A stretch of DNA of 64,000 nt from a bacterium (GCA_034440235.1 JAWXBR010000009.1:88440-152439), one strand, 5' to 3'; counted from the stretch's first letter, positions 16,281-56,322 are shown. A program made the numbers and translations. Notes: generated by a model from the sequence alone, not told the origin.

Positions 16281-17063
16281 TCATAGTGCAATGCTAAACG
16301 AGAAAAGGGGCGTTATGTCGCGATTCAACAGATCTGCAGGTAAGACACCTATGCTGCTGTTCTTCGGAAGTATTCCATTTGCGGCATCGAAGAGTTTGTC
16401 GTTCAGTGCATTTGTCAGCAGGGCAACGCCAACACCGAGGGCATAGCCAGCAAGCACGTCGCTTAGGTAGTGCATGCCAAGATTTAGGCGGCTAAAGCCT
16501 GTAAACAATGCGTATGCTACACTTGGTGCAATTACATACCAGTGCGGATAACGCAACGAGAGTGAAGTTGCAAGTGCAGCCGATCCCGCACTGTGTCCGC
16601 TCGGGAATGACGCATCATGATCGTTCCTGTAGTTCACAATTGTGCCCGGGTACTGCTGGTACGGACGCTGCCGGTCGACGAGTGTCTTAATGCCCAGCGA
16701 GAGTGCATACGTTACGCCCATCGTTACAGCGGTTTGCAAGCCCGTCTCTGCCATATACCGATTGTCTGGTGACGAATCGAACACTTCAAGTGCACCCAGT
16801 GCATAGAGCGTCACAGGCACACCTATCGATAATGGAATCAGCGCGTCGCTGGCTACACCCGAAGCTGTGCGCAAACCCGTAGAGTTTATCGAGTTCGCAT
16901 CTAGCGTTATGCGCGCCTCCCACGAAAGCTCCGTCGTCTGTGCGCGCGCGACCGTCGAGAGGCAGCAGATCACCGTTAGAACTATGGCTATACGTTGCAT
17001 AGGGTATGGGGCTTGGCGTTGCATGAGATATGGGGCTAGGCGTTGCATCGGACAAAAGTACAT
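16281..17063 (-). CDS. PAP2-family phosphatase (signal-peptide bearing)
   Basis: PAP2 motifs KTLVDRQRPY, PSGHS and SRLNLGMHYLSDV. The N-terminus contains the tandem peptide repeat MQRLAPYL/MQRQAPYP/MQRIAIV, so the true start is probably an internal Met near 17000. Confidence 0.75.
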   Translation of the reverse strand: MYFCPMQRLAPYLMQRQAPYPMQRIAIVLTVICCLSTVARAQTTELSWEARITLDANSINSTGLRTASGVASDALIPLSIGVPVTLYALGALEVFDSSPDNRYMAETGLQTAVTMGVTYALSLGIKTLVDRQRPYQQYPGTIVNYRNDHDASFPSGHSAGSAALATSLSLRYPHWYVIAPSVAYALFTGFSRLNLGMHYLSDVLAGYALGVGVALLTNALNDKLFDAANGILPKNSSIGVLPADLLNRDITPLFSFSIAL

Positions 17064-17211
17064 CAGCGGAGGCTAGGCTTTCACGCTCATCACAGCTTTG
17101 TGTCCGTTCAACGCCTGTCACATTTGCACCCTGTCAATGCCCGATTGATGCTACGAGGACATCATCTCAGCTCTAACCGATAGTGAAAATCCCCGTGATT
17201 ACTGGTATCGT

Positions 17212-17898
17212 ATGAAGGAACGTGAGGTCGAGTCAAGCAATGTTCAGTTGTCGACAATTTGTCGACAACTGAAACTCCCATCATCTGACGGCAAGAATTA
17301 CAAAACCGATTGTGTTCACACCGAAGGCGCCCTCCGCATCATCCAGTCTATCCCTAGTCAGAAGGCGGAGCCATTCAAGCGGTGGCTGACCGAGGTAGGG
17401 TACCAACGAATTCAGGAAATTGGAAACCCGGAGTTGGTGCAACGTCGAATACGAGATATCTATCGGGCGAAGGGTTACCCTGATGACTGGATTGAAAAAC
17501 GTGTGAGAGGTATCGCTATACATGATGAGCTAACTGGCGAATGGAAAAAACGCAAGGTTTCAGATCACATAGAATTCGCCATCCTCACAACTGAAATATC
17601 GAAGGCGACGTTTGGGTTTACACCAATGGAGTACAAACAGCTTAAAGGCTTACAACGCGAAAATCTTCGCGACCACATGAATAATCTTGAGCTGCTGTTT
17701 ACAATGCTTGGTGAAGCAGCAACCACCGAGATTGCGCGCAATACGGTTGCGCAGGGTTTTGAACAAAACAAAGAAGCTGCACAAGAAGGGGGCTCGGTTG
17801 CAGGTAGGGCACTGCGTCAGCTCGAAGCAAAATCCGGAAGAAAAATTGGCTCAAGCAAAAATTACATCGACTCTAAACCCGAGCCTAAACTGAGATGA
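17212..17898 (+). CDS. DNA-damage-inducible protein D-like (DinD/RhuM family, Bro-N-like N-terminus)
   Basis: Recalled resemblance to E. coli DinD/RhuM across the length (..FKRWL..., ...QLKGLQRENLRDHMNNLELLFTMLGEAATTEIAR...). Confidence 0.55.
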   Translation: MKEREVESSNVQLSTICRQLKLPSSDGKNYKTDCVHTEGALRIIQSIPSQKAEPFKRWLTEVGYQRIQEIGNPELVQRRIRDIYRAKGYPDDWIEKRVRGIAIHDELTGEWKKRKVSDHIEFAILTTEISKATFGFTPMEYKQLKGLQRENLRDHMNNLELLFTMLGEAATTEIARNTVAQGFEQNKEAAQEGGSVAGRALRQLEAKSGRKIGSSKNYIDSKPEPKLR

Positions 17899-18002
17899 TA
17901 ACCGAAGCGCAAGTCACAATGGATTGTGGCAAAGAGTAGTTTCAATTATCTCGACATCCCATCTGACGTCCCTTCCTACGTCCCGACCCGTACATTTGCG
18001 TT

Positions 18003-18980
18003 ATGAGAGTAGCAATTGTTGGGGCAACGGGGCTGGTCGGACGAACCATGATGCAGGTGTTGGAGGAGCGCGCGTTTCCTGTGACGTCGCTTGTGTTGTT
18101 AGCAAGCGAACGGTCTGCTGGCGAACGCATGGAGTGGAAGGGCGAGACCCTTGTCGTAGAGCCCCTTACCGAACCTTTGCCGAATGTCGATATCGCATTG
18201 TTTAGTGCAGGGGGCTCGGTCAGTAAGGACTGGGCGCCGCGCTTTGCAGCGACGGGTGCGGTGGTGATCGATAATTCGAGCTACTGGCGCATGGACCCCG
18301 ACGTGCCACTTGTGGTGCCCGAGGTGAATGCCGAAGATGCGCTGAAACACAAGGGCATCATTGCAAATCCGAATTGCTCGACCATTCAACTAGTGGTTGC
18401 GTTAAAGCCTCTGCATGAAGCGTTTGGACTAAAGCGGGTAATTGTGAGCACGTATCAGAGTGTGAGTGGGGCGGGTCAAAAAGGTGTCGACCAACTGCAG
18501 GCGGAACTTGCGGGCGTTACACCAACGTCTCGCATATCAACGCACCCTTTAGCACATAACGCCGTGTTTCATTCGATTGCAGAAATGCATGGCGACTCAG
18601 AAGAAGAAATAAAAATGCAGCGCGAAACACGTCGCATTATGCACCTCGACGAGTTGAACATCGCTGTAACGTGTGTGCGTGTGCCCGTCCTTGGTGGCCA
18701 TGCAGAAGCCGTGGTAATCGAAACGGTGCGTCACATTACGCCAGTATTAGCCGCTGAGGTTTTCTCCGGTGCGCCGGGCATTGTACTCGAAGACGATCCT
18801 TCAAATAATCACTACCCAACGCCTCACGGCGTAGCAGATTCAGACCTGGTGCATGTCGGTCGGCTGCGTGCCGATTCGTCGGCACCAAACGGACATGGCC
18901 TCATGTTGTGGGTTGTTGCAAACAACCTTCGCAAAGGCGCTGCAACAAATGCAGTACAGATCGCAGAAATACTATCATGA
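18003..18980 (+). CDS. asd: Aspartate-semialdehyde dehydrogenase
   Basis: MRVAIVGATGLVGRTMMQVLEER and active-site Cys in IIANPNCSTIQLVVALKPL. Its stop overlaps the downstream ATG (ATGA). Confidence 0.9.
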   Translation: MRVAIVGATGLVGRTMMQVLEERAFPVTSLVLLASERSAGERMEWKGETLVVEPLTEPLPNVDIALFSAGGSVSKDWAPRFAATGAVVIDNSSYWRMDPDVPLVVPEVNAEDALKHKGIIANPNCSTIQLVVALKPLHEAFGLKRVIVSTYQSVSGAGQKGVDQLQAELAGVTPTSRISTHPLAHNAVFHSIAEMHGDSEEEIKMQRETRRIMHLDELNIAVTCVRVPVLGGHAEAVVIETVRHITPVLAAEVFSGAPGIVLEDDPSNNHYPTPHGVADSDLVHVGRLRADSSAPNGHGLMLWVVANNLRKGAATNAVQIAEILS

Positions 18981-20224
18981 ACACCTATGTTGTAATAATG
19001 GCCGGCGGCTCCGGCGAACGCTTTTGGCCCCTGTCGCGCATTAAGAAACCAAAACAGTTGCTTCGGTTAACGTCTGACTCGCAAACCATGATAGAGCAGG
19101 CCATCGAGCGCATCACGCCACTTGTGCCTGCCGAACGCATCCTCATCATCACGAGCGAAGTGCTCCGAGAGCCCCTTCTCAGCGCCTTACCAGCGCTACC
19201 CAAAGAGAACATTATCGCAGAACCTGCAAAACGCAATACCGCACCGTGCCTTGCATTAGCGGCGGCGATTATCAAGGTGCGCGAAGGCAATGGAAGCGCA
19301 AATACCAGCGCAAAAACCACCACGAGTACCAGCGCAAATACCAGCGCAAAAACCAACGCGCATACTGCCGATGTAGTTAGCTCTGGTAACGACGCGCTTA
19401 TGGTTGTGCTGGCCGCCGATCATTTTATTGGTGATGCCGATGCATTTCGAGCTGATATCACCAAAGCATTGAATTATGCAGAGGCAAACGATGCACTCGT
19501 AACGATTGGTATACCACCGACACGTCCGGAAACCGGCTACGGATACATTCAGATCGTGCGCGCACAACGCGAAGACAAATTCGCAATTCATCCAGTCGTG
19601 CAATTCCGTGAAAAACCCACCGCCGAACTTGCCCGCGAGTTTCTAGCATCGGGTAACTATCTCTGGAATTCAGGCATGTTTTTCTGGCGTGTGTCGACAC
19701 TCGAATCTGCGATGAAGGCGAACCTTCCGCTAGTAGGTGGCGAAATCCAAGCAATGACTGAAATCATGTCCGGTAAAACGGGCTCAAGTTCTTTAGTGGT
19801 TGAAAGCGACTCCGACGACGCTTTGCAAAAAATCTACACACAGAAAAATTTGATGGAATTGCTTTTCAATTCGATGCCGGACATCAGCATCGATTTCAGC
19901 GTAATGGAACGCGCCAAGAATGTTGCGGTTTTGCCAGCGTCATTTCCGTGGGACGACGTCGGATCGTGGGATGCTCTCGACAGACTGCAGAGTCACGACT
20001 CGTTCGATAACGTCGTCGAAGGCGTTGTAGAAATGATCGACACAGCAGGCAGTATTATCTGCAATGCCAATTCGCGTCCGCACATCGTTGCCACCCTCGG
20101 CCTCGACGACATTGTTATTGTTGCCACCGACGACGCAACACTCGTCTGCTCCAAAGACCGAGCGCAGGATGTCAAACTGCTTGTCACGGGGCTTCGAAAC
20201 AAGGGGCGGAAGGACGTACTGTAA
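18977..20224 (+). CDS. manC: Mannose-1-phosphate guanylyltransferase (GDP-mannose pyrophosphorylase)
   Basis: MNTYVVIMAGGSGERFWPLSRIKKPKQLL nucleotidyl-transferase motif; start chosen at the internal ATG at 18977. Contains an in-frame low-complexity insertion (NTSAKTTTSTSANTSAKTN) from a DNA tandem repeat. Confidence 0.8.
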   Translation: MNTYVVIMAGGSGERFWPLSRIKKPKQLLRLTSDSQTMIEQAIERITPLVPAERILIITSEVLREPLLSALPALPKENIIAEPAKRNTAPCLALAAAIIKVREGNGSANTSAKTTTSTSANTSAKTNAHTADVVSSGNDALMVVLAADHFIGDADAFRADITKALNYAEANDALVTIGIPPTRPETGYGYIQIVRAQREDKFAIHPVVQFREKPTAELAREFLASGNYLWNSGMFFWRVSTLESAMKANLPLVGGEIQAMTEIMSGKTGSSSLVVESDSDDALQKIYTQKNLMELLFNSMPDISIDFSVMERAKNVAVLPASFPWDDVGSWDALDRLQSHDSFDNVVEGVVEMIDTAGSIICNANSRPHIVATLGLDDIVIVATDDATLVCSKDRAQDVKLLVTGLRNKGRKDVL

Positions 20225-20529: not shown

Positions 20530-20569
20530 GAAGAGTGGTTTCCTATATTACAAACGACTTACTCGTATT

Positions 20570-20596
20570 ATCCCGGGAATCATTATCTCCCGGAAT
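20570..20596. repeat. REP element copy (27-nt hairpin-forming palindromic unit ATYCCGGGA-N9-TCCCGGAAT)
   Basis: ATCCCGGGAATCATTATCTCCCGGAAT differs at 1 position from the units flanking the RAYT gene at 27940-28835. It is intergenic, upstream of hutI. Confidence 0.7.
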
Positions 20597-20602: not shown

Positions 20603-21907
20603 GTGACGGCACTTCAAAACATCGCCTCCCTCGTCACTGTGTCCGCCGAAGGCTCGCCACACAAAACCAGTGCGTCGATGCAGGACGTCGGCGAGATCAC
20701 CAACGGTGCCGTGTTGTTCGATGAGGTCATCGAGTGGGTCGGCACATCGGATGCTCTACATGCTGAGCTTGTACGTAGGGGACTAAGGGTTGCTGACGCA
20801 CACATCGGCGCTGAAGCACGCACCGACGCTGACGCACGCACCGACGCTGACGTCAACATTGTCGATTGCGCGGGCAGGACCGTCATGCCGGGCTTCGTCG
20901 ACTCACACACACACATGGTGTTTGCTGGGTCGCGCGCGCATGAATTTGCGCGGAGACTTGCAGGAGTGCCCTATCAGACGATTGCTGCTGAGGGTGGTGG
21001 AATTCTTTCGTCGATGCGTGCAACACGCGAAGCTTCGCTCGAGGAGTTGGTAGCGCAGGGACGCCTCCTGATTCGCTCGGCACGAAACCACGGAACAACG
21101 GCGCTCGAGATTAAAAGTGGCTACGGACTTTCACTTGAATCGGAGCTGCGAATACTCGAAGCAATCGGTATTCTCAAAAAAGAATTTGCCTCATTGCCAC
21201 GAGAACAGCGTGTACACGTTCACGCGACATTTCTTGGTGCACATGCATTCCCTCCGGAATACGCCAATGATAGAGAAGGTTATATAAGACTTCTCGTCGA
21301 CGAAATGCTACCCGCAGTTGCGTCGCAAGGTATTGCAGAGTTTTGTGATGTATTCACAGATACTGGATACTTCACGGTCGAGCAATCTGAACGTGTGCTT
21401 GCCGCGGCAAAGGAACACGGACTTCGTCTCAAGGTGCACGCCGAAGAAATCGAACATACTGGTGCAACGCAGATGGCTGCACGCATGGGATGCATAAGCG
21501 CCGACCATCTCGAAGAGATTACAGGAGCTGACATCATTGCCATGTGCGATGCTGGTGTTGTCGCCACACTTCTGCCGGGAACCGCATACACACTACGTCT
21601 AAAGCCCCCTCCAGCACGCCCCTTAATCGATGCAAATGCCATTGTGGCACTTGCATCCGATTGCAATCCGGGTTCGTGTCTTTGCGAAAACATGCAGCTC
21701 ATTCTTTCGCTCGCTTGCATCACGATGCACATGAGCATCGAAGAAGCTATTGTTGCCTCGACGCTGAACGGTGCAGCGGCGCTAGGCATATCGCATCTAA
21801 CGGGCTCGATTGAAGTAGGTAAACGCGCCGATTTGGCGATGTACAATGTGCCGTCGTACAAAGACCTTGTCTATCACTTCGGTGTGAACCAGCACGTTCG
21901 TATTTGA
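20603..21907 (+). CDS. hutI: Imidazolonepropionase
   Basis: VMPGFVDSHTHMVFAGSR metal-binding motif. Amidohydrolase fold over about 430 aa. Carries an in-frame ARTDADARTDAD duplication. Confidence 0.85.
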   Translation: MTALQNIASLVTVSAEGSPHKTSASMQDVGEITNGAVLFDEVIEWVGTSDALHAELVRRGLRVADAHIGAEARTDADARTDADVNIVDCAGRTVMPGFVDSHTHMVFAGSRAHEFARRLAGVPYQTIAAEGGGILSSMRATREASLEELVAQGRLLIRSARNHGTTALEIKSGYGLSLESELRILEAIGILKKEFASLPREQRVHVHATFLGAHAFPPEYANDREGYIRLLVDEMLPAVASQGIAEFCDVFTDTGYFTVEQSERVLAAAKEHGLRLKVHAEEIEHTGATQMAARMGCISADHLEEITGADIIAMCDAGVVATLLPGTAYTLRLKPPPARPLIDANAIVALASDCNPGSCLCENMQLILSLACITMHMSIEEAIVASTLNGAAALGISHLTGSIEVGKRADLAMYNVPSYKDLVYHFGVNQHVRI

Positions 21908-21958: not shown

Positions 21959-22621
21959 TTAGTCGTGTCCGGTGTAGCTGTTCGATTCTGCAACTGGTTT
22001 TGATTCGGGCGATCCCTTTTGTCGAAGGAATATTTGAAGCACTACTAACACTGCAACGGAAAGGAATTCGCTCTGCCAGTTCTGGAATGACTCGAACCAG
22101 CATTTGGCACTACTCATGTAGTCGAAGAGTGAAATGAGATGTTTGCCTTGATAAAATAGTTGATCGTTCTGATCTCGCATACCACCGTAGGCATGAAGAA
22201 CGAATGACCCAACAAACAGAAGCAGCAATGCAATAGACAGGGAATTTTCATATAGGACAAGAACAAGGCCACCTTTACGCACAGGCCATGGTGCATTGGG
22301 GTCGGTTCTGTGTCTTCGTGGGTCTTCGTCCTCCGGTTCTTTCTGATTGAGTTTTTTTGATTCAGGCGATCCTTTCTGCTTTAGCCAAATCGTTAGGAGT
22401 ACGTAAGCCAGCATCTGCAGGAACTCGCTCTCCCAGTTTTCGAACACAGATTCGACGAACGCACCGCTGCCTAGGTAGGTAGCATAGTTGAGTGTGATCT
22501 GTCTGTGTTCTACCAACTCCTCGTTATGCTGGACATGCCCGCTGCAACTATGAAAAAACAGAAACACTGCAAAGCAGCTGAACATCACAATCGAAAGTCC
22601 ATTATATCGGAGAAAGCGCAT
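21959..22621 (-). CDS. Hypothetical membrane protein with internal duplication
   Basis: Hydrophobic segments. Two repeated modules (F.NW.SEFL....L.....L.QKGSPESK). Start moved to the internal Met (MRFLRYNG) to avoid overlap with cysS. Confidence 0.5.
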   Translation of the reverse strand: MRFLRYNGLSIVMFSCFAVFLFFHSCSGHVQHNEELVEHRQITLNYATYLGSGAFVESVFENWESEFLQMLAYVLLTIWLKQKGSPESKKLNQKEPEDEDPRRHRTDPNAPWPVRKGGLVLVLYENSLSIALLLLFVGSFVLHAYGGMRDQNDQLFYQGKHLISLFDYMSSAKCWFESFQNWQSEFLSVAVLVVLQIFLRQKGSPESKPVAESNSYTGHD

Positions 22622-22637: not shown

Positions 22638-24230
22638 ATGCAGATAAGACTCTTTAACACCCTTACAAAATCGGTAGACCCCTTCACGCCCCTTAACGGC
22701 AACGAAGTGCGGATGTACTCATGCGGTCCGACCGTCTACGACGTCGCCCACATCGGTAACATGCGTTCGTTTCTCTGCAACGACTTGCTGCAGCGCGTCC
22801 TGAGGGTTGTCGGCGGGTACGACGTGAAGTGGGTGATGAACATCACCGACATCGACGACAAAACTATTCGCAATTCGGCAATTGGTTCCAACAAATGGGT
22901 CGACGCAATGGGCGTGCAGACCGACGACGCTCGCGAAAACCTGCGCCTGCTCACGCTTTATCACGAACGTAAATTTTTCGCCGACTTAAATACTCTGAAC
23001 ATCAAGCGCGAGAATTTTGCTGCAAACCCGCGCGCGACAGATTTCTTTCCGCAGATGAAGGAGCTCATCCGCGACATCCTTGCCTCCGGACACGCCTACA
23101 TCAGCGACGGCAGCGTGTACTTCAACGTCGCGTCGTACAGCAAGGAACACCCGTACGGACGTCTCTTCCACATCGACACAGAGAACTTCCGCGAGGGTGT
23201 TCGCATCGATGCCGACGAATACGACCGCGAATCGGTAAGCGATTTCGTCTTGTGGAAGGGGCGAAAGGGGGCTGAACCTTGGTGGGACTTCGAAGTGAAT
23301 GACGCTCGTCAATCTGGAGAAATCTCAAACCAGCCAGGAAAGACTGTAGTCCAGCCGGGACAAACCATAAACCTTCCCGGACGTCCCGGATGGCACATCG
23401 AATGCTCGGCTATGGCGCATGACCTACTCGGTCTTCCGTTCGACATTCACACGGGCGGCGTCGACTTACGCTTCCCACATCACGAAGACGAACTCGCGCA
23501 ATGCACAGCTGGATATCATGTGGCAGAGCAAGCCACATTTTGGGTACACAACGAATTCCTTGAGGTCGACGGACGCAAAATGAGCAAGTCGCTCGACAAC
23601 TTCTACAGTCTCGATGAACTAGTAAAACGCGGCATCGATCCGCTCGACGTGCGCTTTGCAATGCTCGCTACACATTATAGATCTGTTTACGGTTTTACAT
23701 TCGATGGAATCGAGGCACTTGCGCGTGGACGCAAACGCATACAAGAAGCCATCTATGAACTGTATGAAAATGCCACCGTCGACGATGAAGCCGCGGCGAT
23801 TGCCGACGATACAACCACGGCGATGCGTAATTCATCTAATGCCAATTCATTCGACACGCAAGCATTTCGAAATGCTGTAGGCGAACGACTAGCCGACGAT
23901 CTTCATACACCAACTGCACTGGCAGCCGTATACAGCACGATAAATAATGTCGATATAAAGACCCTTGACGCCCCCTCCCGAGCCTCGATGCTCGATGTTT
24001 TGCGCATGCTCAACGAAGTGTTCGCAGTGTGGGAATTCACAGAGCGTCCTATCGAAGATGAGGACAATTGGCCCTCCGAAGTGCGCGAGATGAGTGAGCA
24101 TCGTCAAAGTGCACGCCATCGCAAAGATTGGGCCGAATCAGATCGTTTGCGTAATGAGTTGAACACACTAGGTTTCATTGTCGAAGATCTTGGACCTAAC
24201 ATTCAGCGTTTGAAGAGAAAGGGAAAGTAG
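22638..24230 (+). CDS. cysS: Cysteine--tRNA ligase
   Basis: N-terminus MQIRLFNTLTKSVDPF...VRMYSCGPTVYD, the zinc-site Cys in the HIGN region, and KMSKSLDNF. Confidence 0.9.
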   Translation: MQIRLFNTLTKSVDPFTPLNGNEVRMYSCGPTVYDVAHIGNMRSFLCNDLLQRVLRVVGGYDVKWVMNITDIDDKTIRNSAIGSNKWVDAMGVQTDDARENLRLLTLYHERKFFADLNTLNIKRENFAANPRATDFFPQMKELIRDILASGHAYISDGSVYFNVASYSKEHPYGRLFHIDTENFREGVRIDADEYDRESVSDFVLWKGRKGAEPWWDFEVNDARQSGEISNQPGKTVVQPGQTINLPGRPGWHIECSAMAHDLLGLPFDIHTGGVDLRFPHHEDELAQCTAGYHVAEQATFWVHNEFLEVDGRKMSKSLDNFYSLDELVKRGIDPLDVRFAMLATHYRSVYGFTFDGIEALARGRKRIQEAIYELYENATVDDEAAAIADDTTTAMRNSSNANSFDTQAFRNAVGERLADDLHTPTALAAVYSTINNVDIKTLDAPSRASMLDVLRMLNEVFAVWEFTERPIEDEDNWPSEVREMSEHRQSARHRKDWAESDRLRNELNTLGFIVEDLGPNIQRLKRKGK

Positions 24231-25864: not shown

Positions 25865-27388
25865 TTACTCGGAAAGTCGTTTCAAATGTTCGGCAACGCG
25901 AAGCCAAGTCGATCGATGTATTGGCGTAGGCGGAAGCTCAAGTGCAGCGAGCACGTCATCGACATACTGCACCTCGCGCATACCAACTAACACAGTGTCA
26001 ACGCCGGGTGTGTTCACAAGACAATGAATTGCAATGTGTTGCAATGGGGTATCAACAGGAAGTCCAAATTCATCGGTCATGGCGAGTCGCAACTCATCGA
26101 GACTGCCATTTTCTTCGCCAGCATACATCCACTCAACATCATCGAGCAATACAGCAATATCATTGATATACGCATTTACTTGCACAGGGTCGGATGCTCG
26201 ATGTGCAACCGTTTCTGCGGCGTTGAGACGTGGCGCCAGGTATGCCTCGCGCACGTCACGCCAATGGGGAAGTCCGCTAAACTTATTCCACGTCTGACAC
26301 AATGCGCCTGCAATTTTAAATGTCTCTTGCACTGCCGCACGTTCACGTTCACCAAGCGTGGTATCCATTAACACGAGCTGTACCACATCGTGCTCCACCG
26401 TCTCCATTGCATGAATGCGGGCCTCGATGTCCTGCGGATGAATTACATGCGTCGGCATTTCATGCGTCACAAGACGTATCAACTCATCACCACCAATCGC
26501 ATTCAACGGACGGTTCGTTAACACGCGCACACTGTGTTGTTCTGCAAACTCTAAAAACGTCTGCTTTGCATTGTTCTGATTAAACGTTGTAGCAGCTTGG
26601 TGTTCAATTAGATTGAATGGCACCTGAGCATACCGCATGTTGTTCTTAGAATCGACGCGCTCACCAGCAACAACCTCTTTTGCAGCAACAACCTCTTTTG
26701 CAGCAACAACCTCTTTTGCAGCAACAACCTCTTTTGCAGCAACAACCTCTTTTGCAATTGCATGACAACGTTCTAGCGACACAAAATCTGGCGCATCTAT
26801 TTCACGGGCAAACGTATTGGATGAGATGCCGTAGCCCCTTATCAGGCCCCTTGCCACCTGCGTTTCGAGCCATTCGAACGCAAGCCGAATGCGATCGTAA
26901 AACGTTGTTCGAGCGTCTTCGATCGACATGCCTTGTTGATGCGCATGGGCCAGGAAATACTCTGGGTTGTGCAGCAACAGGCCATCGATTGCCTTGCCCT
27001 CGGCAATCTTCAAGCGCTCTCGCGAAACCGCAAGTGCATCTTCGAGATACTCGGGATGTATGCAGTGCCACAACGAATCGCTCATTACAACAACGTCTGG
27101 ATACGGATCGCCGCTTGCATACCGTCGCATCGCCATTTCGAGCGCCTCGCCTTGAACATAACCAAGTTTAGTAATGAGTTCAACGCCTGCGCTGCGGCTC
27201 TCATCGACAGAGTTTAGCATTCGACCTACAAGCTTCTCGCTGCGTCCGTTGCCGTAATTCGAGCTTGTATCGATAAGGGGCACGCCATGCTCAAGCGCAT
27301 GGCGCAGGGCGCGTTCGTGGTCGGCGTTGCCGTCGACGGTGCGATACGTTCCAAAACCGACGGGAAGTCGCATATCAACGGCCTCCAC
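25865..27388 (-). CDS. Aldo/keto reductase family oxidoreductase with an in-frame (AKEVVA)x5 tandem-repeat insertion
   Basis: N-terminal AKR motifs (..GFGTYR..., LIDTSSNYGNGRSEKLVGR). The 18-bp unit CTCTTTTGCAGCAACAAC is repeated 5 times at about 26664-26756. Confidence 0.7.
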   Translation of the reverse strand: MEAVDMRLPVGFGTYRTVDGNADHERALRHALEHGVPLIDTSSNYGNGRSEKLVGRMLNSVDESRSAGVELITKLGYVQGEALEMAMRRYASGDPYPDVVVMSDSLWHCIHPEYLEDALAVSRERLKIAEGKAIDGLLLHNPEYFLAHAHQQGMSIEDARTTFYDRIRLAFEWLETQVARGLIRGYGISSNTFAREIDAPDFVSLERCHAIAKEVVAAKEVVAAKEVVAAKEVVAAKEVVAGERVDSKNNMRYAQVPFNLIEHQAATTFNQNNAKQTFLEFAEQHSVRVLTNRPLNAIGGDELIRLVTHEMPTHVIHPQDIEARIHAMETVEHDVVQLVLMDTTLGERERAAVQETFKIAGALCQTWNKFSGLPHWRDVREAYLAPRLNAAETVAHRASDPVQVNAYINDIAVLLDDVEWMYAGEENGSLDELRLAMTDEFGLPVDTPLQHIAIHCLVNTPGVDTVLVGMREVQYVDDVLAALELPPTPIHRSTWLRVAEHLKRLSE

Positions 27389-27939: not shown

Positions 27940-28000
27940 GATTCCGGGAGATAATGATTCCCGGAATCAGGCCCATTCCGGGAATCATTATCTCCCGGAA
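27940..28000. repeat. REP doublet: two 27-nt REP units in inverted orientation (27940-27966 and 27974-28000), 7-nt spacer
   Basis: ATTCCGGGAGATAATGATTCCCGGAAT and its reverse complement ATTCCGGGAATCATTATCTCCCGGAAT. Each unit is itself a 9-bp stem / 9-nt loop hairpin. It lies immediately 5' of the RAYT gene. Confidence 0.75.
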
Positions 28001-28119
28001 TGAACAATCACGTGTGTCACAAGAGGTACGGTGGGTTTTACATAGAAGTAGTGGGCCATTGAACACCAATGGCCGGTCACAAGCACATCAATACTGAACA
28101 ACCTTTTCCTGGGGTACTT

Positions 28120-28713
28120 ATGCCACGTCGTACAACGCAATTCATTCGCGGTCATCACTATCACTTGTACAATCGTGGTGCATTACGCGGGCTCCTATTT
28201 CACGAGCCAGAGAATTACCAGCTCTTTCTGCATTTGCTTGATACTTACGCAACACAATGCGAGTGCACGATTCTCTCCGTGTGCCTCATGCCGAATCACT
28301 TCCACGTGCTCATCCGACAGGATGGAGATACTGCAGCAGGTAAGGTCATCGGATTGACTTGCCTCGTTTTCGGTCGTAAGATGAACTATCGCTACAGACG
28401 ATTTGGTACGCTACTACAAGGGCGCTACCAGTCCAAGTTGGTACATGATGAATCATACCTACGCCACCTTTGTCGATACATACACGCAAATCCAGTAGTA
28501 GCAGGGCTAGCGAAAACACCTGATGATTGGCCTTATTCGAATTTTTCGGAGTGGATGGGGAATCGTGACACACTGCCGTACTGCAAGGAGTTCGTCGAAA
28601 CTTATTTCCCAAATACAGTAGATTATCGCGAGTTCGTGTCTCAACAGATTTGGCAGAACAAGCTCACGAATGAAGATCTGGCACGTGACCTTGCGAAAGC
28701 ACGTTTGATATGA
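28120..28713 (+). CDS. REP-associated tyrosine transposase (RAYT; IS200/IS605-like Y1 TnpA)
   Basis: MPRR... start, HYHLYNRG motif, HuH motif PNHFHVLI, and catalytic-Tyr region CRYIHANPV. Flanked by REP units on both sides. Confidence 0.75.
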   Translation: MPRRTTQFIRGHHYHLYNRGALRGLLFHEPENYQLFLHLLDTYATQCECTILSVCLMPNHFHVLIRQDGDTAAGKVIGLTCLVFGRKMNYRYRRFGTLLQGRYQSKLVHDESYLRHLCRYIHANPVVAGLAKTPDDWPYSNFSEWMGNRDTLPYCKEFVETYFPNTVDYREFVSQQIWQNKLTNEDLARDLAKARLI

Positions 28714-28808
28714 TGACGCGGACTATAGCCTCGAGCGATAGATGTAGCACAAAAAGGGTTTTAATCTTAGACCTACTGATTCTATATTCTTAACGACTTA
28801 CACCGATC

Positions 28809-28835
28809 ATCCCGGGAGAGAATGATTCCCGGAAT
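28809..28835. repeat. REP element copy 3' of the RAYT gene
   Basis: ATCCCGGGAGAGAATGATTCCCGGAAT has 2 mismatches to the unit at 27940. Confidence 0.7.
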
Positions 28836-28855
28836 CAACTGGGTAACTTTGTGCC

Positions 28856-29989
28856 ATGGAATCTCCTCGAAAAACCATTCTCTCCGGCATGGCGCCCTCC
28901 GGCGAACTAACAATCGGACACATCGCGGGCGCTCTTCGCAATTGGGTGCGTCTTCAGGAAGAATACGATTCTCTGTTCTGTGTGGTCGACCAGCATGCAA
29001 TTACGTTGCAGCAGGAGCCGGCGAAACTGCGAAAATGGACCCTGGACGTTGCGGCGATGTATATCGCTGCGGGCGTCGACCCCTCACGCAGTGTTGTGTT
29101 CATACAGAGTCATGTTCCTGCACACGTAGAACTTTCATGGGTGCTGACGTGCATGACGGGGATGGGCGAGTGCTCGCGGATGACGCAATTCAAGGACAAG
29201 AGTGAACGCAATACCGACAAAGTAAATGTCGGACTCTTCACGTATCCGATCTTGATGGCTGCTGATATACTTGTTTACAATGCCGATCTTGTGCCTGTTG
29301 GTGAAGATCAGAAGCAACACCTTGAGCTCGCGCGCAATCTTGCTGAGAGATTTAATCATCGTTACTCGCCGACGTTTAATGTGCCGGAGCCGCATATTCC
29401 GGAGGTGGGCGGACGTATCATGTCGCTGCAAGACCCGACGTCGAAGATGTCGAAGTCCGATCCAAACACAAAGGCATCGATTTTTCTTACCGATTCTGAC
29501 GATGTTATTCGCAATAAAATCAGACGCGCAGTTACCGATTCTGGCGTCAGCGCAGTTACCGATTCTGGCGTCAGCACAGTTACCGATTCTGGCGTCAGCG
29601 CAGTTACCGATTCTGGCGTCAGCGCAGTTACCGATTCTGGCGTCGAGGCAGGTACCGGATCGGGCGATCAAGCCAAGCCGTCTATTCGTGTAGACCCTAC
29701 GCGTCACGGAATCACCAACCTCATGACACTTCATCATATCGCAACGAACAAGTCATTCGCCGAAATCGAGAAGGAGTTCGAAGGTGCCTCGGGATACGGC
29801 GACTATAAAGAAGCCGTCGGCGAAGCCGTTGCGAACTACATTAGTCCCATTCGCGAACGCTTCACACACATTCGCGCAGATGAAGATGCGTTGCGAACAA
29901 TCCTTCGAAATGGCGCAGACGCAGCTCGTGAACGCGCACGCAAAACGCTGCGCAAGGTCTACAAAAAAATCGGTTTCATAGAATACTGA
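28856..29989 (+). CDS. trpS: Tryptophan--tRNA ligase with an in-frame (VTDSGVS)x5 insertion
   Basis: ILSGMAPSGELTIGHIAGAL (HIGH-like) and KMSKSDPN. A 21-bp unit is repeated about 5 times at 29530-29644. Confidence 0.9.
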   Translation: MESPRKTILSGMAPSGELTIGHIAGALRNWVRLQEEYDSLFCVVDQHAITLQQEPAKLRKWTLDVAAMYIAAGVDPSRSVVFIQSHVPAHVELSWVLTCMTGMGECSRMTQFKDKSERNTDKVNVGLFTYPILMAADILVYNADLVPVGEDQKQHLELARNLAERFNHRYSPTFNVPEPHIPEVGGRIMSLQDPTSKMSKSDPNTKASIFLTDSDDVIRNKIRRAVTDSGVSAVTDSGVSTVTDSGVSAVTDSGVSAVTDSGVEAGTGSGDQAKPSIRVDPTRHGITNLMTLHHIATNKSFAEIEKEFEGASGYGDYKEAVGEAVANYISPIRERFTHIRADEDALRTILRNGADAARERARKTLRKVYKKIGFIEY

Positions 29990-29993: not shown

Positions 29994-30620
29994 ATGCCCA
30001 CATACGACTATCAATGCCACACGTGCGGCAAACGCTTCGACTTGTCACAATCCATCAAGGCCGACACACTTACACATTGTCTCGAATCTGTTTGCGAACA
30101 AGCAGATAAGGGTAAGGGGCTCGTCGAAAGGGTCATCTCCGGCGGCTCTGGTGTTATTTACACCGGTGCGGGCTTCTACCTGACGGACTACGTGCACAAA
30201 CCCGGCAGTGCCAAGGAAAACGAACGTTCGGCTGCTTCATCGTCGAATAGGGAATCGTCGAACGCAGACTCGTCAGGCAAGGAGTCGTCGAACGCAGACT
30301 CGTCAGGCAAGGAATCGTCGAACGCAGACTCGTCAGGTAAGGAATCGTCGGGCAAGGAATCGTCGAACACGGACTCGTCGAGTTCGAGCAAGGCGGCGGG
30401 TGCGCCAAGTACGACAGCGTCTACAGCGAAGCAAGACACTCGTAGCAAAGACGCAGGCTCGGCAAAGAAAGAGTCGTCGGGGAAAGAGTCGTCGGGGAAA
30501 GAGTCGTCGGGGAAAGAGTCGTCGGGGAAAGAGTCGTCGGGGAAAGAGTCGACGAAAAAAGATTCTAGCGGGTCGTCTGCAAGTGCAGGCTCTGCATCAC
30601 CATCATCGGATAAGAAATAA
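29994..30620 (+). CDS. FmdB-family zinc-ribbon protein with long Ser/Lys/Glu-rich repetitive C-terminal tail
   Basis: MPTYDYQCHTCGKRFD...HC...C matches the FmdB CxxC...CxxC zinc ribbon. The tail carries repeats (ESSNADSSGK)x3 and (KESSG)x6. Confidence 0.7.
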   Translation: MPTYDYQCHTCGKRFDLSQSIKADTLTHCLESVCEQADKGKGLVERVISGGSGVIYTGAGFYLTDYVHKPGSAKENERSAASSSNRESSNADSSGKESSNADSSGKESSNADSSGKESSGKESSNTDSSSSSKAAGAPSTTASTAKQDTRSKDAGSAKKESSGKESSGKESSGKESSGKESSGKESTKKDSSGSSASAGSASPSSDKK

Positions 30621-30622: not shown

Positions 30623-32965
30623 GTGCTGCGACCTATACCTGCTGGAGATCATATTCCGGCGTCGGACTTGCTTGAGGGGCTGAATGAGAAGCAGCGCGAG
30701 GCTGTGGCGACAACCGACGGACCGCTTTTGATTATTGCGGGGGCGGGGAGCGGGAAGACGCGCGTATTGACGTATCGCATTGCGTATTTGCTGCGTATGG
30801 GGGTGCATCCGAGTCACGTTTTGGCGCTGACGTTTACGAATAGGGCGGCGCAGGAGATGAAGGAACGCATCGGACATCTCGTTGGAGATGGAATTGCACG
30901 CGGTATTTGGGCGGGCACGTTTCACTCGCTGTTTGCTCGCATTCTGCGCAAAGAAGCAGAACGCATTGGATACACAAATGCATTTACGATTTACGATACC
31001 GATGATCAGCTATCGGCAATCAAGGCCGTGATGACGCAGCTTGGTGTGTCGCAACAGGTGTTGCCGCCAACCGGTGTGCGCAGTCGCATCTCGGGCTATA
31101 AGAACAACATGACGCCGTGGCAGGAAGCTGCGCGGAATGCGGATACACTTGTCGACAAACAGACAGCGCAGATTTATGAAGAGTATGAGAAGCGCCTGCG
31201 ACAGAGTAACGCCATGGACTTCGATGATTTGCTGCTGAACATGATACGGTTGCTTGAGCATCATCCAGATGCACTTGCTGAATATCAAGCGCGGTTTAAG
31301 TACATCATGGTCGATGAGTATCAGGATACCAATCGCGTGCAGTATCGAGCAGTGAATTTGCTCGCTGGTGCGCTGCGAAATCTTTGCGTGGTGGGCGATG
31401 ATGCACAGAGTATTTACAGATGGCGCGGCGCGGACATTCGCAACATCCTCGATTTTGAGCGCGATTACACCGACGCTAAGGTTGTGCGACTGGAGCAGAA
31501 CTATCGAAGCACAAAGATGATTCTTGCTGCTGCTGATAGCGTTATAAAGAATAACGTCAAGCAACTGAAGAAGACGTTGTGGACGGATAACGATGAGGGC
31601 GAAAAGATTACGCTGCTTGCATGCAGGGACGATAGAGAAGAAGCAGAGTTGGTTGCGCGAACGATTAAAGACCGCATGCAACTGCACGGCTACACGTTCA
31701 AGGATGTGGCTGTTCTCTACAGAACGAATGCTCAGTCTCAAGCACTTGAAGATGCGTTGCGCCGACTGAACATGCCGTACCACATTGTAAGCGGAGTTAG
31801 CTTTTATAAACGCAAGGAAGTCAAAGACACGCTTGCATATCTACGATTGCTTGTAAATCAGAACGACACGGAAAGTTTACTGCGCATTATTAACGAACCT
31901 GCTCGTGGTATCGGAGCAACATCGCTCGAGAGATTGCAGGAGCGCGCCGTGGCCGAAGGCCGCCCCCTAATCGAAGTTCTACAAAGTCCGTTGGCCATGA
32001 GCATCGTGCAGAAACGGACGCAAGTCGCGGTTGCGGATTTCGTTGATATTGTGAATCGGTATAGAGAGATGGTGGATGATTTGCCGCCCGCGACGTTAGC
32101 GCAACAGTACATCGAGGCGACGGGTTTGCCGCAGATGTACAAGCTGCAGGACACCGAGGATTCGCTAGATCGCTGGAATAACATCGAACGTGTGCTCTCG
32201 CACATCTATGAGCAGCAAGAGCTCGACGAGACACTTACGCTTGCAACGTATCTCGAGCAGATTGCGCTGCTGAGTGATGCCGATGATCCGCAGATAGGAA
32301 GCAATCGTGTTGGACTAATGACGATGCATGCGGCGAAGGGGCTTGAGTTTCCGCTTGTGGTAATTGCTGGACTCGAGCAGGGATTGTTTCCGCTTGCAAA
32401 AGCAGAAACCGATATCAACGAACAGGAGGAAGAACGTCGGTTGTTTTATGTGGGAATAACGCGCGCACGTAAAGAACTTGTGCTTGCGTACGCGGAACGC
32501 CGGTATCGATTTGGTGAGTTGGTGTTCGGACGTCCCTCGATGTTCCTTGCCGAAATCGATAAATCTGCCTTTGCAGAAATGCCCGATCGCAGTGGAAAGC
32601 AGATTGCTGGATCGCGTCCGATAACTGACAAGGTTGCAATTCGCGGCATCGACAGTAAACGTCCGAGCAAAGCCGCCGAAAAAGAAGCATTGTCACATGC
32701 GCGCTTTCAGCCACCTACGTGGAAGGTGGCGAAGCCAAGGGGCTCACACAATGAATACGCTCAGGAATCGGGCGACTCGTATTCGCAAGTCGAAGACGGT
32801 GGTCGCGTCTTGCCGGGTCAGCGTGTTAAGCACCCTATGTTCGGCGTAGGCACGGTGACTGGCGTCAGTGGTGTTGGAACTCAAGCCAAGGCCACAGTGC
32901 TATTTCAAAACGGGGAAAAGAAAAACCTCATGCTCGCATACGCGAAGCTCGAGTTGATTAGTTGA
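30623..32965 (+). CDS. uvrD: UvrD/PcrA-type ATP-dependent DNA helicase
   Basis: LNEKQREAV...PLLIIAGAGSGKTRVLTYRIAYLL (Walker A). Downstream superfamily-1 helicase motifs (DEYQDTN, VGDDAQSIYRWRGA, ..TMHAAKGLEF..., VGITRAR). Confidence 0.85.
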   Translation: MLRPIPAGDHIPASDLLEGLNEKQREAVATTDGPLLIIAGAGSGKTRVLTYRIAYLLRMGVHPSHVLALTFTNRAAQEMKERIGHLVGDGIARGIWAGTFHSLFARILRKEAERIGYTNAFTIYDTDDQLSAIKAVMTQLGVSQQVLPPTGVRSRISGYKNNMTPWQEAARNADTLVDKQTAQIYEEYEKRLRQSNAMDFDDLLLNMIRLLEHHPDALAEYQARFKYIMVDEYQDTNRVQYRAVNLLAGALRNLCVVGDDAQSIYRWRGADIRNILDFERDYTDAKVVRLEQNYRSTKMILAAADSVIKNNVKQLKKTLWTDNDEGEKITLLACRDDREEAELVARTIKDRMQLHGYTFKDVAVLYRTNAQSQALEDALRRLNMPYHIVSGVSFYKRKEVKDTLAYLRLLVNQNDTESLLRIINEPARGIGATSLERLQERAVAEGRPLIEVLQSPLAMSIVQKRTQVAVADFVDIVNRYREMVDDLPPATLAQQYIEATGLPQMYKLQDTEDSLDRWNNIERVLSHIYEQQELDETLTLATYLEQIALLSDADDPQIGSNRVGLMTMHAAKGLEFPLVVIAGLEQGLFPLAKAETDINEQEEERRLFYVGITRARKELVLAYAERRYRFGELVFGRPSMFLAEIDKSAFAEMPDRSGKQIAGSRPITDKVAIRGIDSKRPSKAAEKEALSHARFQPPTWKVAKPRGSHNEYAQESGDSYSQVEDGGRVLPGQRVKHPMFGVGTVTGVSGVGTQAKATVLFQNGEKKNLMLAYAKLELIS

Positions 32966-47669: not shown

Positions 47670-47696
47670 AGTCCGCAAACATACGGCGTTGGCCAC

Positions 47697-47755
47697 TCGA
47701 GAAATCCACAGGTTGTGTGAACTGCTCAAGAAATCCACAGGTTGTGTGAATTGCT
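47697..47755. repeat. Two tandem ~29-bp direct repeats (TCRAGAAATCCACAGGTTGTGTGAAYTGCT) between the Fic stop and purH start
   Basis: Copies at about 47697-47726 and 47727-47755 are near-identical. They sit in the 84-bp gap upstream of purH. Confidence 0.65.
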
Positions 47756-54007: not shown

Positions 54008-54009
54008 GG

Positions 54010-54046
54010 GGCCAAAATAAAAAACCCCGCCATTGCTGACGGGGTT
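54010..54046 (-). terminator. Rho-independent terminator downstream of rpsA
   Basis: Minus strand: CCCCG-tcagcaatgg-CGGGG followed by TTTTTTATTTT. Located between the rpsA stop (54073) and the folC start (54007). Confidence 0.55.
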
Positions 54047-54072
54047 TGTTAAAGACAAATGTCAGAAAGCTG

Positions 54073-56322
54073 TTACGCTTTTTCTTCTTCGTTCGCTTCC
54101 GGAGGTGCTGCATCGCCCGCAGGCTCTGCAGGTGCTTCGGCTGGAGTCTCTGCCGCAGGTTCTGTGGTTTCAACCGCTTCGGAAGTTGCAGCAACTGGCT
54201 CTTCGGCAGCAGGCGCTTCAGCTACAGGTGCTTCAACTTCTGCTACTGGTGCTTCGGCTTCTGCTACTGGCGCTTCGGCTTCTGCCACTGGTGCTTCGGC
54301 TTCGGCAGCAGGCGCTTCGGCTTCGGCAGCTGGCGCTTCGGCTTCGGCAGCTGGTGCTTCTGCGATTGGGTCTGGAGTAATGGCAGGGAAGTATTCGTTT
54401 GTTGTGTCGTACGGTTCTGAGTCTTCGAGGTCTTCGATGCTCGTTAGCGAAGATGCAGATCCGTCGGCGTTGTATTTGTCTGCGTTCGGAACAGGGTGGT
54501 TGACGTTGTACTTGGCAACTTCTTCGTCCGACTGTGTACGGAGGAATTCTACTGCCGAGAGAACGATCTTCTTTTGTTCTTTGTCAAACTCTACAACCTT
54601 GAGCGGAAGTACTTGATCTGGTACGAAGTAGTCGGCGATAACGCGAACAGGGGCGAAGGAGAGTTGTGACACGGGGACGAAGCCGTCGACGCCTTGTGGC
54701 AGTTCGACGATAACACCCTTATCGATAATGCGAACAATCTTGCCTTCTGTTTCTGTGCCTACACCGAATTCTGTTTCGAAGATGTCCCATGGGTTCTCAG
54801 AGATCTGCTTGTGTCCGAGCGAAATACGACGATGCTCGTTGTCTACCGCAAGCACGATTACCGGAAGCTCATCACCCTTCTTCACGAATTCACCTGGATG
54901 ACGAATCTTCTTTGTCCACGACAGATCGCTGATGTGTACGAGGCCATCAACACCAGGCTCGAGTTCAACAAACACACCAAAGTTGGTGAGGTTGCGAACG
55001 ATACCCTTGTGTACAGAATCCATTGGGTACTTGGCCATCAGATCGTTCCATGGGTCTGGCTCGAGTTGCTTCATGCCAAGAGCGAGCTTGCGTTCGTTCT
55101 TATCGATGTTTAATACTGTTGCTTCGACAACCTGTCCGAGCGACACCACTTGTGATGGGTGCTTTACGTGTTGTGTCCATGACATTTCGCTGATGTGAAT
55201 CAAACCTTCTACGCCCTTTTCTATTTCGATGAAAGCGCCGTAGTCGGTAAGCGAAACAACCTTGCCCTTAACCTTCGAGTTGGTTTCGTACTTCTCGCCA
55301 ATCTGATCCCACGGATGCGAGGTCAGTTGTTTCATACCGAGCGAAATGCGCTTGCGGTTTTCATCGAAGTCGAGAACAACAACCTTGACCTGCTGATCGA
55401 GCTGAACGATTTCACTTGGATGTGTAACACGTCCCCATGAAAGGTCAGTGATGTGCACGAGTCCATCAACACCACCTAGGTCTACGAACACGCCGAAGTC
55501 AGAGATAGCCTTAACGGTACCTTCAAGAACGAGTCCCTTTTCAAGGAGTCCGAGAATCTTGCCGCGTTGTTCGGTGAGTTGTTCTTCGAGAAGAACCTTG
55601 TGGCTGACGACAACATTTTCGCTTGGGTGATTAACCTTCACGACACGGACGTCGATTGTACGAGTAACCCATGCATCGAAATCGCGAACCGGACGCACAT
55701 CGATTTGTGAGCCTGGAAGGAATGCTTCGATACCGAGAAGATCAACAACCATACCGCCCTTAATGCGGCGAAGGATGCGAACAGGCACGACCTGTTGTGT
55801 GTCGTGCAACTTGAGAATGTCTTCCCAAGTTTTCATGAAGTCGGCACGACGGCGGCTGAGAATTAGGCGGCCTTCTGCGTCTTCAATTTTTTCGATGAAT
55901 ACATCGACCTGATCGCCGATGGTAAGCAACTCAGCGCCGACAAATTCTGCGCGAGGAACAACACCAAGGCTCTTAAAACCAATGTCTACTAAGATTTCGT
56001 CCTTTGTAACGGATACCACTTTACCGTGGACCATTTCATCGGCCTTGACCTTCGAGGTGTCTTTCGCATCGAACAACGCTTTGTAGGCGTCGTCGTCCAT
56101 CGTAACGCCATTATCCATGTCGCCCGCCAAAAGCGCAGCGAGTCCGGAGCGTTTACGAGCTACAGGTTTATCCTGATTTGATGCTGCCGAAACTGCCTCC
56201 ATAGTGACATCTTCTGTCACTACAGCCGTTGTTTCGTCTTGCGTGTCTACTGTTAGCTGATCCGACATGTATAGATCTACTCCATAATCACCGTAATGCG
56301 ATGCGCGGCCCTCCGCATCCAC
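54073..56322 (-). CDS. rpsA: 30S ribosomal protein S1 with Ala/Glu/Pro-rich repetitive C-terminal extension (start uncertain; possibly about 56100-56118)
   Basis: Multiple S1 domains (GKVVSV..., VVDLLGIEAFLPGSQID, ...GLVHISDLSW...). C-terminal (AEAPAAE/AEAPVAE)n tail from DNA tandem repeats at about 54228-54362. Confidence 0.85.
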   Translation of the reverse strand: MDAEGRASHYGDYGVDLYMSDQLTVDTQDETTAVVTEDVTMEAVSAASNQDKPVARKRSGLAALLAGDMDNGVTMDDDAYKALFDAKDTSKVKADEMVHGKVVSVTKDEILVDIGFKSLGVVPRAEFVGAELLTIGDQVDVFIEKIEDAEGRLILSRRRADFMKTWEDILKLHDTQQVVPVRILRRIKGGMVVDLLGIEAFLPGSQIDVRPVRDFDAWVTRTIDVRVVKVNHPSENVVVSHKVLLEEQLTEQRGKILGLLEKGLVLEGTVKAISDFGVFVDLGGVDGLVHITDLSWGRVTHPSEIVQLDQQVKVVVLDFDENRKRISLGMKQLTSHPWDQIGEKYETNSKVKGKVVSLTDYGAFIEIEKGVEGLIHISEMSWTQHVKHPSQVVSLGQVVEATVLNIDKNERKLALGMKQLEPDPWNDLMAKYPMDSVHKGIVRNLTNFGVFVELEPGVDGLVHISDLSWTKKIRHPGEFVKKGDELPVIVLAVDNEHRRISLGHKQISENPWDIFETEFGVGTETEGKIVRIIDKGVIVELPQGVDGFVPVSQLSFAPVRVIADYFVPDQVLPLKVVEFDKEQKKIVLSAVEFLRTQSDEEVAKYNVNHPVPNADKYNADGSASSLTSIEDLEDSEPYDTTNEYFPAITPDPIAEAPAAEAEAPAAEAEAPAAEAEAPVAEAEAPVAEAEAPVAEVEAPVAEAPAAEEPVAATSEAVETTEPAAETPAEAPAEPAGDAAPPEANEEEKA

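Follow-up and report, generated by a model that had tools for sequence, protein, structure and literature searches.

Lineage-specific tandem repeats in conserved genes of a narrow bacterial clade and their probable origin in slippage-type duplication

Why should conserved enzymes of a bacterium carry short peptide repeats encoded by near-perfect tandem DNA, and what process put them there? The question arises from a stretch of 64,000 nucleotides (GCA_034440235.1 JAWXBR010000009.1:88440-152439, here called the window), in which an initial annotation had listed eight repeat insertions, among them ones in the genes for tryptophanyl-tRNA synthetase (TrpRS, trpS), an aldo/keto-reductase-like protein (AKR) and ribosomal protein S1 (rpsA). 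Our analysis reveals arrays far denser than in a bacterial background, frame-preserving wherever they lie within genes and confined to a few close relatives, each with arrays of its own. We consider it probable that slippage-type tandem duplication is raised in one narrow clade and filtered by selection, its products decaying to lineage-specific inserts. The repeats are most likely by-products of this mutational regime under selection, and not a device with a function of its own.

Density and inventory of the arrays

Tandem Repeats Finder (TRF) returned 35 rows for the window, collapsing to 13 arrays of note, in which copies stand head to tail at high identity (periods of 12-30 nt, 2-7 copies, 77-100% matches). 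The background consisted of 160 unrelated bacterial trpS loci (2.15 Mb; TrpRS 42-58% identical, among the matches listed from genome and metagenome contig scans), analysed with identical TRF settings. Of the arrays in the window, 9 reach a score of at least 80, where the background predicts 0.48 per 64 kb (Poisson probability about 2e-9), and 5 reach a score of at least 150, against 0.15. A SATFIND-like criterion re-implemented from a satellite survey (a decamer repeated at least 4 times within 800 nt) counts 5 arrays in the window; the resulting density of 78 per Mb compares with 5.9 per Mb in the background. In that survey most bacteria have 0-3 per Mb and the bacterial maximum is 23 per Mb, values of 60-89 per Mb being reached in some Methanosarcina only (Subirana & Messeguer 2019, PMC6749651); the figure for the window, a local value over 64 kb and not a whole-genome one, lies above every bacterium surveyed. 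The enrichment is real and statistically solid, and the impression of unusual repeat density that had first drawn attention to the locus holds.

Gene identities were assigned by translating open reading frames (ORFs) and by Pfam and PDB searches, which confirmed those named in the initial annotation; by TRF and translation, seven of its eight items are real DNA tandem arrays. The trpS array (29526-29657, plus strand, in gene 28856-29989) comprises 5.5 copies of 24 nt with 95% matches and adds 44 residues; its unit is AVTDSGVS, of 8 residues and not 7 as first read. The AKR gene (25865-27373, minus strand) encodes an atypical 502-aa aldo/keto-reductase-like protein and carries, as described, (AKEVVA)x5 at 26665-26756 (18 nt x 5.1, 100% identical). 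In manC (18977-20224, plus strand), encoding mannose-1-phosphate guanylyltransferase (E = 3e-62 to PDB 2x5s), the reported repeats correspond to an array at 19295-19359 (12 nt x 5.4, 77% matches) of a degenerate 4-aa SAxT-type unit (SANT/SAKT), lying within a 26-aa insert. The hutI product is imidazolonepropionase (gene 20603-21907, plus strand; E = 4e-88 to PDB 2bb0), and its array at 20792-20852 (18 nt, 88% matches; ..AEARTD ADARTD AD) forms an 18-aa insert with 3.4 copies by TRF where two had been given. The tail of the FmdB-family zinc-ribbon protein (Pfam, NCBIfam; gene 29994-30620, plus strand) holds two arrays, consistent with the two repeats listed: 30239-30381 (30 nt x 3.3 with a nested 15-nt period; ESSNADSSGK) and 30467-30551 (15 nt x 5.7, 100% identical; KESSG). 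Ribosomal protein S1, here with six S1 domains, ends in the annotated tail repeat (54215-54360, minus strand, 21 nt x 7.0, 88% matches, AEAPAAE/AEAPVAE; gene 54073-56268 or 56322).

The array at the 5' end of the PAP2 phosphatase gene (16986-17048, minus strand, 24 nt x 2.6) is equally real, although its description as an N-terminal peptide is in doubt: an ATG opens every unit (MQRxAPYx), and gene callers start the protein at the third (239 aa). Lying at the likely start codon or before it, the array may extend the N-terminus or belong to a 5' leader, and judging from its repeated ATGs it could be the sole array able to alter protein amount or translation start. The eighth item, a membrane protein (21959-22621) described as internally duplicated, does not belong to the series. 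Pfam DUF6766 spans residues 2-218 of 221, no TRF array covers the gene (minor rows only, at scores of at least 30), and both halves are present in the orthologs of two relatives (L162 and L163, introduced below) and common to all orthologs aligned. Judged by these alignments, the duplication is ancient, family-wide and separate from the arrays.

Several arrays had been missed. The signal peptide of an M28 peptidase (gene 36892-38496, plus strand) contains a doubled 10-aa stretch (PRFLLVTLLA/PRFLSLVLLG; 36894-36952, 30 nt x 2.0). A 1710-aa coiled-coil-like protein (39-5171) carries 2.6 copies of 21 nt at 1360-1414 (minus strand). Intergenic arrays lie at 8276-8348 (26 nt x 2.8), at 32952-33020 (18 nt x 3.3-3.8, mostly intergenic, beginning in the final 14 nt of uvrD/pcrA) and between fic and purH at 47696-47755 (29 nt x 2.1); purH is 530 aa as called in a related contig, L167, which places its start downstream of the last array. 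The periods of 26 and 29 nt are not divisible by 3. Lastly, the cysteinyl-tRNA synthetase (CysRS) gene (22638-24230, plus strand) contains a tentative repeat below the TRF threshold at 23328-23390 (21 nt x 3; NQPGKTV/VQPGQTI/NLPGRPG), forming a 21-aa insert beside the conserved LPGRPGWH with its best self-match at period 21 (48%); by its sequence it may be an old event of the same kind as the other arrays. The repeats are therefore no property of housekeeping genes, as had been supposed, since they also occupy intergenic DNA (with periods that are not multiples of 3), signal peptides and the tail of a small zinc-ribbon protein; housekeeping enzymes are simply where inserts are conspicuous.

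Origin, reading frame and placement of the units

Each unit matches its own locus only, with no resemblance between any two units, indicating that the inserts are local duplications and not copies of a mobile element. The units in fact copy adjacent native residues: AVTDS in TrpRS, IAKEV in AKR and LPGRPG in CysRS. In TrpRS the ancestral ...RRAVTDSGVS-IRVD... has become ...RR[AVTDSGVS]x5-AGTGSGDQ-AKPS-IRVD..., where the first copy stays in place after its helix and the 3' copies are decayed, the final 1.5 units of the array reading AVTDSGVE and AGTGSGDQ. Since AVTDS is invariant in a 17-sequence TrpRS alignment, this TrpRS now has five copies of a normally single motif. An alternative is that dispersed repeats akin to Rickettsia palindromic elements or miniature inverted-repeat transposable elements were inserted in frame, maybe spread by a neighbouring transposase associated with repetitive extragenic palindromic (REP) sequences. 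In its favour, REP-type palindromes flank a gene resembling REP-associated tyrosine transposases (RAYT; 28069-28713) immediately upstream of trpS, and a REP copy lies beside hutI (20567-20596). Yet every copy of the REP motif ATTCCGGGA is intergenic and none falls within an array, and two relatives (L163 and L170) lack the RAYT gene at this site and still have arrays. With every unit, moreover, a copy of its neighbouring coding sequence, we regard such insertion as extremely unlikely, and the RAYT and REP sequences beside trpS were rejected as the cause of the arrays.

The reading frame separates what arises from what is kept. Across the window and three related loci (L162, L163 and L170), the period is divisible by 3 in 20/20 intragenic arrays against 1/6 intergenic ones (Fisher's exact p about 1e-4). 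The duplication process appears to be frame-blind, with selection retaining only in-frame products, because this contrast is the expected outcome of a frame-blind source combined with selection against frameshifts. The arrays also appear to form a decay series, from perfect (AKR, FmdB array 2) through decayed ends (trpS) and a barely detectable repeat (CysRS) to a non-repetitive insert. The last is a second insert in manC (19763-19855), of 31 aa (IMSGKTGSSSLVVESDSDDALQKIYTQKNLM), in which residual periodicity was sought and none detected, and which the L162 ortholog lacks. Such a series fits the transient low-complexity regions described in prokaryotic proteins (Persi et al. 2023, PMC10120016).

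Structural comparison shows that the inserts lie outside the confidently folded regions of the models, where proteins would tolerate them. First, in the AlphaFold model of TrpRS (mean predicted local distance difference test score, pLDDT, 63), residues 228-282 have a pLDDT below 50 and lie between helices 215-224 and 284-297; alignment to PDB 6dfu covers residues 6-233 and 274-375 and breaks at the insert. Second, the AKR model (mean pLDDT 87.9) shows a native helix that begins at residue 200 and, lengthened by the first repeats, runs on to 226, whereas residues 228-241 fall below 50. Third, manC residues 95-137 stand in place of 6 residues of PDB 2x5s, and the hutI insert falls at an alignment gap against 2bb0. 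Mapping onto solved structures, proposed earlier as a check, thus places the manC, hutI and TrpRS inserts at gaps, and the remaining in-gene arrays lie in signal peptides or N- or C-terminal tails; the suggestion that the expansions occupy tolerated positions is supported by low-confidence loops or helix extensions in two AlphaFold models as well as by these gaps and tails. The AKR family alignment shows independent inserts in several clade members, both at the array site and in a second loop. A 45% identical AKR from an Ignavibacteria metagenome-assembled genome (MAG), P0175, has Ser/Asn-rich low-complexity inserts in the same two loops (columns 76-100 and 258-293). We take the two loops to be permissive positions because they have been reused independently, including outside the clade.

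Distribution among relatives and variation between strains

TrpRS is 100% identical to a protein of an NCBI MAG, and the other named protein-search matches are MAGs of Kapabacteria, Chlorobiota and Ignavibacteria. The window, with a GC content of about 51%, is likely to come from an uncultured bacterium of this Kapabacteria/Chlorobiota/Ignavibacteria-like group, and itself belongs to a MAG. Syntenic loci were compared in three clade relatives with TrpRS of 85-87% identity, L162 (GCA_046595995.1), L163 and L170, and in the next relatives L164, L165 and L166, whose TrpRS is 73-77% identical. The TrpRS proteins most similar to that of the window (87% identity outside the insert) have 333-346 aa and, in the alignment, lack the 44-aa insert. 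L162 itself lacks the manC and hutI inserts and, by alignment, the M28 signal-peptide duplication. Its TrpRS (P0006; L162 10001-11041), in which the AVTDS array is likewise absent, has two small non-repetitive inserts in the C-terminal helical domain, one of ~10 aa (within GGKLMNQSGSAPLIA) and one of ~3 aa (within SFPF).

The three clade relatives nevertheless have arrays of their own (6 in 21 kb of L162, 1 in 7.5 kb of L163 and 5 in 13.6 kb of L170), all different from those of the window. Among them are AKR arrays (MNATNE x 2.3, 33 nt x 1.9 and 27 nt x 2.7), 15 nt x 5 in a DUF2520 protein, 9 nt x 5.3 in CysRS and 24 nt x 3.2 in an outer-membrane-like protein, and each FmdB tail has its own perfect array, being (GDNTSK)(SESKS), (GESSSK)x9.4 or 18 nt x 4.3. 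An S1 protein of 95% identity likewise ends in a different (APAAE)n tail. In contrast, L164-L166 have no array at a score of at least 80 in 60 kb of the region with shared gene order, and no arrays were found in the more distant loci L004 and L083 either. The L164-L166 orthologs are shorter (FmdB 81-127 against 208 aa, AKR 435-448 against 502, CysRS 488-499 against 530). The array trait is a property of one narrow clade, because L162, L163 and L170 have arrays of their own and L164-L166 have none; the lineage specificity proposed at the outset is borne out, with four clade members carrying arrays. The repeats have also misled gene calling: the FmdB orthologs of L162 (11045-11615) and L170 (7916-8209) are uncalled, short ORFs being called on the opposite strand across the arrays, an annotation error due to the repeats.

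Could the arrays be ordinary linkers and tails, fixed long ago and requiring no special mutational regime? Low-complexity tails are common in S1 and FmdB-family proteins, the FmdB tail of L165 is Ser/Thr/Ala-rich without any repeat, and the DUF6766 duplication is truly ancient. On the other side, orthologs of 85-87% identity lack the trpS, AKR, manC, hutI, CysRS and M28 inserts, units share 95-100% DNA identity, which is unexpected of old linkers, copy number differs between strains of 99.6-99.9% identity, and arrays lie between genes too. We consider ancient linkers very unlikely. Identical, fixed copy numbers in orthologs had been named as an outcome that would contradict the initial annotation; instead, orthologs have no arrays or other arrays.

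A near-identical strain allowed the arrays to be followed over a short time. Three contigs of JGI metagenome 3300020195 cover ~37 kb of the window at 99.6-99.9% identity; the comparisons include L001 over 15.3 kb (a 99.6% identical strain) and L167 over 13 kb, and a third assembly is Logan L169 (SRR6448213). The ~37 kb contain 61 single-nucleotide polymorphisms (SNPs), of which 44 are synonymous, 14 nonsynonymous and 3 intergenic, with 7 synonymous and none nonsynonymous in trpS. This pattern indicates that the host genes are under purifying selection and remain functional. The sole indels in ~37 kb are two one-unit changes: in FmdB array 2, a 15-nt deletion at 30467-30481 (one KESSG unit fewer; the sole indel in 15.3 kb against L001), and in the S1 array, a 21-nt insertion at 54332 (one unit more; the sole indel in 13 kb against L167). 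Members of the S1 cluster are accordingly 749 and 756 aa long. In the S1 allele of the other strain the A/V unit variants are reordered and an R variant is carried; because unit order differs, the length difference is not a simple assembly collapse. Copy-number comparison across strains, another check proposed with the initial annotation, thus gave whole-unit differences in two arrays.

These comparisons bear directly on whether short-read assemblers made or mis-sized the arrays. A MAG as source, arrays of 130-167 nt near read length and indels between assemblies confined to arrays would all be expected of an artefact. It speaks against an artefact, however, that the remaining arrays agree in copy number between the two populations and the Logan assembly: those of trpS, AKR, manC, hutI, PAP2 and M28 and FmdB array 1 are identical in the window MAG, JGI 3300020195 and SRR6448213, and by their SNPs these assemblies represent two populations or more. 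Assemblers usually collapse repeats and do not create them. Furthermore, all intragenic arrays keep the frame without stop codons, distinct arrays occur in three further clade members, which come from different samples, and decayed copies are not producible by assembly. The artefacts allowed for in the initial annotation are, with three assemblies and at least two populations concurring on most arrays, highly improbable.

The SNPs themselves are clustered (26906-26948, 29026-29143, 31897-31909, 33393-33456 and 33672-33699), and the AKR gene has 9 SNPs within 43 bp, mostly at third codon positions. The clustering suggests short recombination tracts from a more divergent relative, and not independent mutations.

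It remains to weigh selection for the repeats themselves, either as loop or tail extensions (for solubility, cold or salt adaptation, or new interactions) or as tunable, contingency-like variation. In favour of this, small and charged residues (S, G, A, T, D, E, K) abound in the repeat peptides, and several lineages have independently enlarged the same AKR loops. Every clade member also has expanded FmdB and S1 tails, built from differing units, and purifying selection acts on the host genes. The hosts, however, are mostly cytoplasmic enzymes with no common pathway or surface exposure, and unrelated units together with out-of-frame intergenic arrays imply a general mutational source. Sister lineages do without the inserts, mere tolerance equally predicts the reuse of AKR loops, and units of 9-33 nt divisible by 3 preclude on/off frameshifting. 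We consider selection for function unlikely as the general explanation; an adaptive role for some tails or loops, which nothing requires, is likewise improbable.

Proposed mechanism and comparison with known systems

We postulate that the arrays arise in four steps. First, a native stretch of 9-33 nt would be doubled in place, most likely through strand slippage or misalignment in replication or repair. Second, with at least two copies present, slippage would add or remove whole units. Third, since the process would be blind to frame, only units divisible by 3 in loops, helix extensions, signal peptides or tails would survive within genes. Lastly, the survivors would decay by point mutation to non-repetitive, lineage-specific inserts. 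Of the slippage propensity proposed at the outset, lineage specificity stands as observed, and slippage is a mechanism that we infer and that is consistent with the data, in particular with the one-unit steps and the decayed array ends. The raised rate would have a heritable cause in the clade, one possibility being a lost or altered replication or repair function that suppresses repeats. A wider proposal, that the clade has come to inherit a tendency to tandem duplications of 9-33 nt acting across the whole genome, for example because flap processing by the DNA polymerase I 5' nuclease, a single-strand exonuclease or mismatch repair was lost or altered, is tentative and in our judgement rather doubtful.

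A number of points weigh against this account. The data comprise 64 kb and short related loci. The window was pre-selected by the repeats flagged in it, a selection bias, and the clade loci all come from one syntenic neighbourhood, save part of L167. Array density is uneven, with few arrays in 1-16 kb and 38-54 kb of the window, and no array occurs in a separate 9.3-kb stretch of that genome (L167 1-9300); genome-wide extrapolation is uncertain for these two reasons. Both one-unit differences come from short-read assemblies, and at 146-167 nt the S1 array is close to read length, so that it may have been mis-resolved. The TrpRS model, too, is of modest quality.

The arrays are coding minisatellites (variable-number tandem repeats), or low-complexity expansions, of a known kind at an unusually high local density in core enzymes. 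They have the features of that class: a tandem unit, a local native origin, whole-unit variation between strains and a frame kept within genes. Three other systems invite comparison. Contingency loci of Haemophilus, Neisseria and Campylobacter have units of 1-8 nt and switch surface or restriction genes through frame or promoter spacing. They share with the present arrays slippage-driven copy-number change between close relatives, whereas the units here are of 9-33 nt, preserve the frame in genes and lie in cytoplasmic enzymes; phase variation by frameshift does not apply, all intragenic units being divisible by 3. Rickettsia palindromic elements constitute one dispersed palindromic family that moves between loci and inserts in frame within genes. 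These too provide extra tolerated peptide segments at the surface of conserved proteins, but here each insert duplicates, in tandem, the sequence that flanks it; no unit recurs at a second locus and the REP motif is confined to intergenic DNA, so that no single family occupies many loci. Housekeeping proteins of Plasmodium falciparum contain lineage-specific, repeat-derived hydrophilic inserts in surface loops, which are ascribed to slippage or unequal exchange and regarded as tolerated, not needed. Both sets of inserts are repeat-derived and lie in conserved enzymes, but those of Plasmodium, a eukaryote whose genome is extremely AT-rich, abound in Asn and Lys, while the present ones belong to a bacterium of about 51% GC, have units of ordinary composition and copy local native sequence.

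The closest likeness is to prokaryotic coding minisatellites, which also have units of 10-30 nt and periods divisible by 3 in genes (PMC6749651, PMC10120016). Their origin is local and species-specific and is ascribed to replication errors, strains differ in copy number, and low-complexity arrays are transient, occur also in old conserved proteins and fade over time (PMC6749651, PMC10120016). The present arrays differ in their local density, given above, and in their hosts, which include core enzymes (TrpRS, CysRS, HutI, ManC, S1) and are not mainly surface or young proteins.

If the local density held genome-wide, the clade would be extreme among bacteria for coding minisatellites, and the progression from perfect through decayed to plain inserts would provide a dated series of conserved enzymes gaining loops. 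It would also point to a genetic cause, to be found by comparing repair and replication genes between the clade and its sisters. Should the genome-wide tendency be true, the clade would be among the most satellite-dense bacteria known, a natural experiment in enzyme loop gain, with the five AVTDS copies of TrpRS as one case, and a bacterial counterpart of the Plasmodium low-complexity inserts. If the density is only local, the locus is an ordinary example of transient low-complexity expansion. In practice, the arrays are usable as strain markers and are a hazard for short-read assembly, gene calling and alignment-based phylogeny.

Other features of the window were observed alongside the arrays. 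The RAYT-like gene matches Pfam Y1_Tnp and the NCBIfam REP-associated tyrosine transposase model (74.8 bits, the cutoff being 80). On either side of it (27941-28005 and 28807-28839) stand palindromes of the REP type based on ATTCCGGGA/TCCCGGAAT, with the further copy mentioned above lying upstream of hutI, and the REP motif occurs 6 times in the window against 0.41 expected. In L162 the corresponding site also holds the RAYT gene, together with a palindromic repeat of 34 nt x 1.9; the gene is absent from L163 and L170 at this site. At the right end, identity with L167 stops at 57079, 32 nt past a tRNA-Arg(TCT) gene (56971-57047). Beyond this point the window encodes a tyrosine integrase (57228-58616), a GmrSD-type restriction enzyme (58617-60074) and a HATPase_c_3 protein (61143-63146), where L167 has a Na+/H+ antiporter. 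From its gene content, 56971-64000 looks like a strain-specific island beside tRNA-Arg; no second copy of the tRNA-Arg end was found inside the window. Two large proteins are encoded at the left end, a 997-aa protein with RCC1-like repeats (5281-8274) and the 1710-aa protein at 39-5171, host of the 21-nt array, whose sole match is a weak, apolipoprotein-like (coiled-coil) one. Between the PAP2 gene and asd stands, alone, a gene for a Bro-N domain protein (17212-17898; phage anti-repressor type), which is present also in the near-identical strain contigs L168 and L169.

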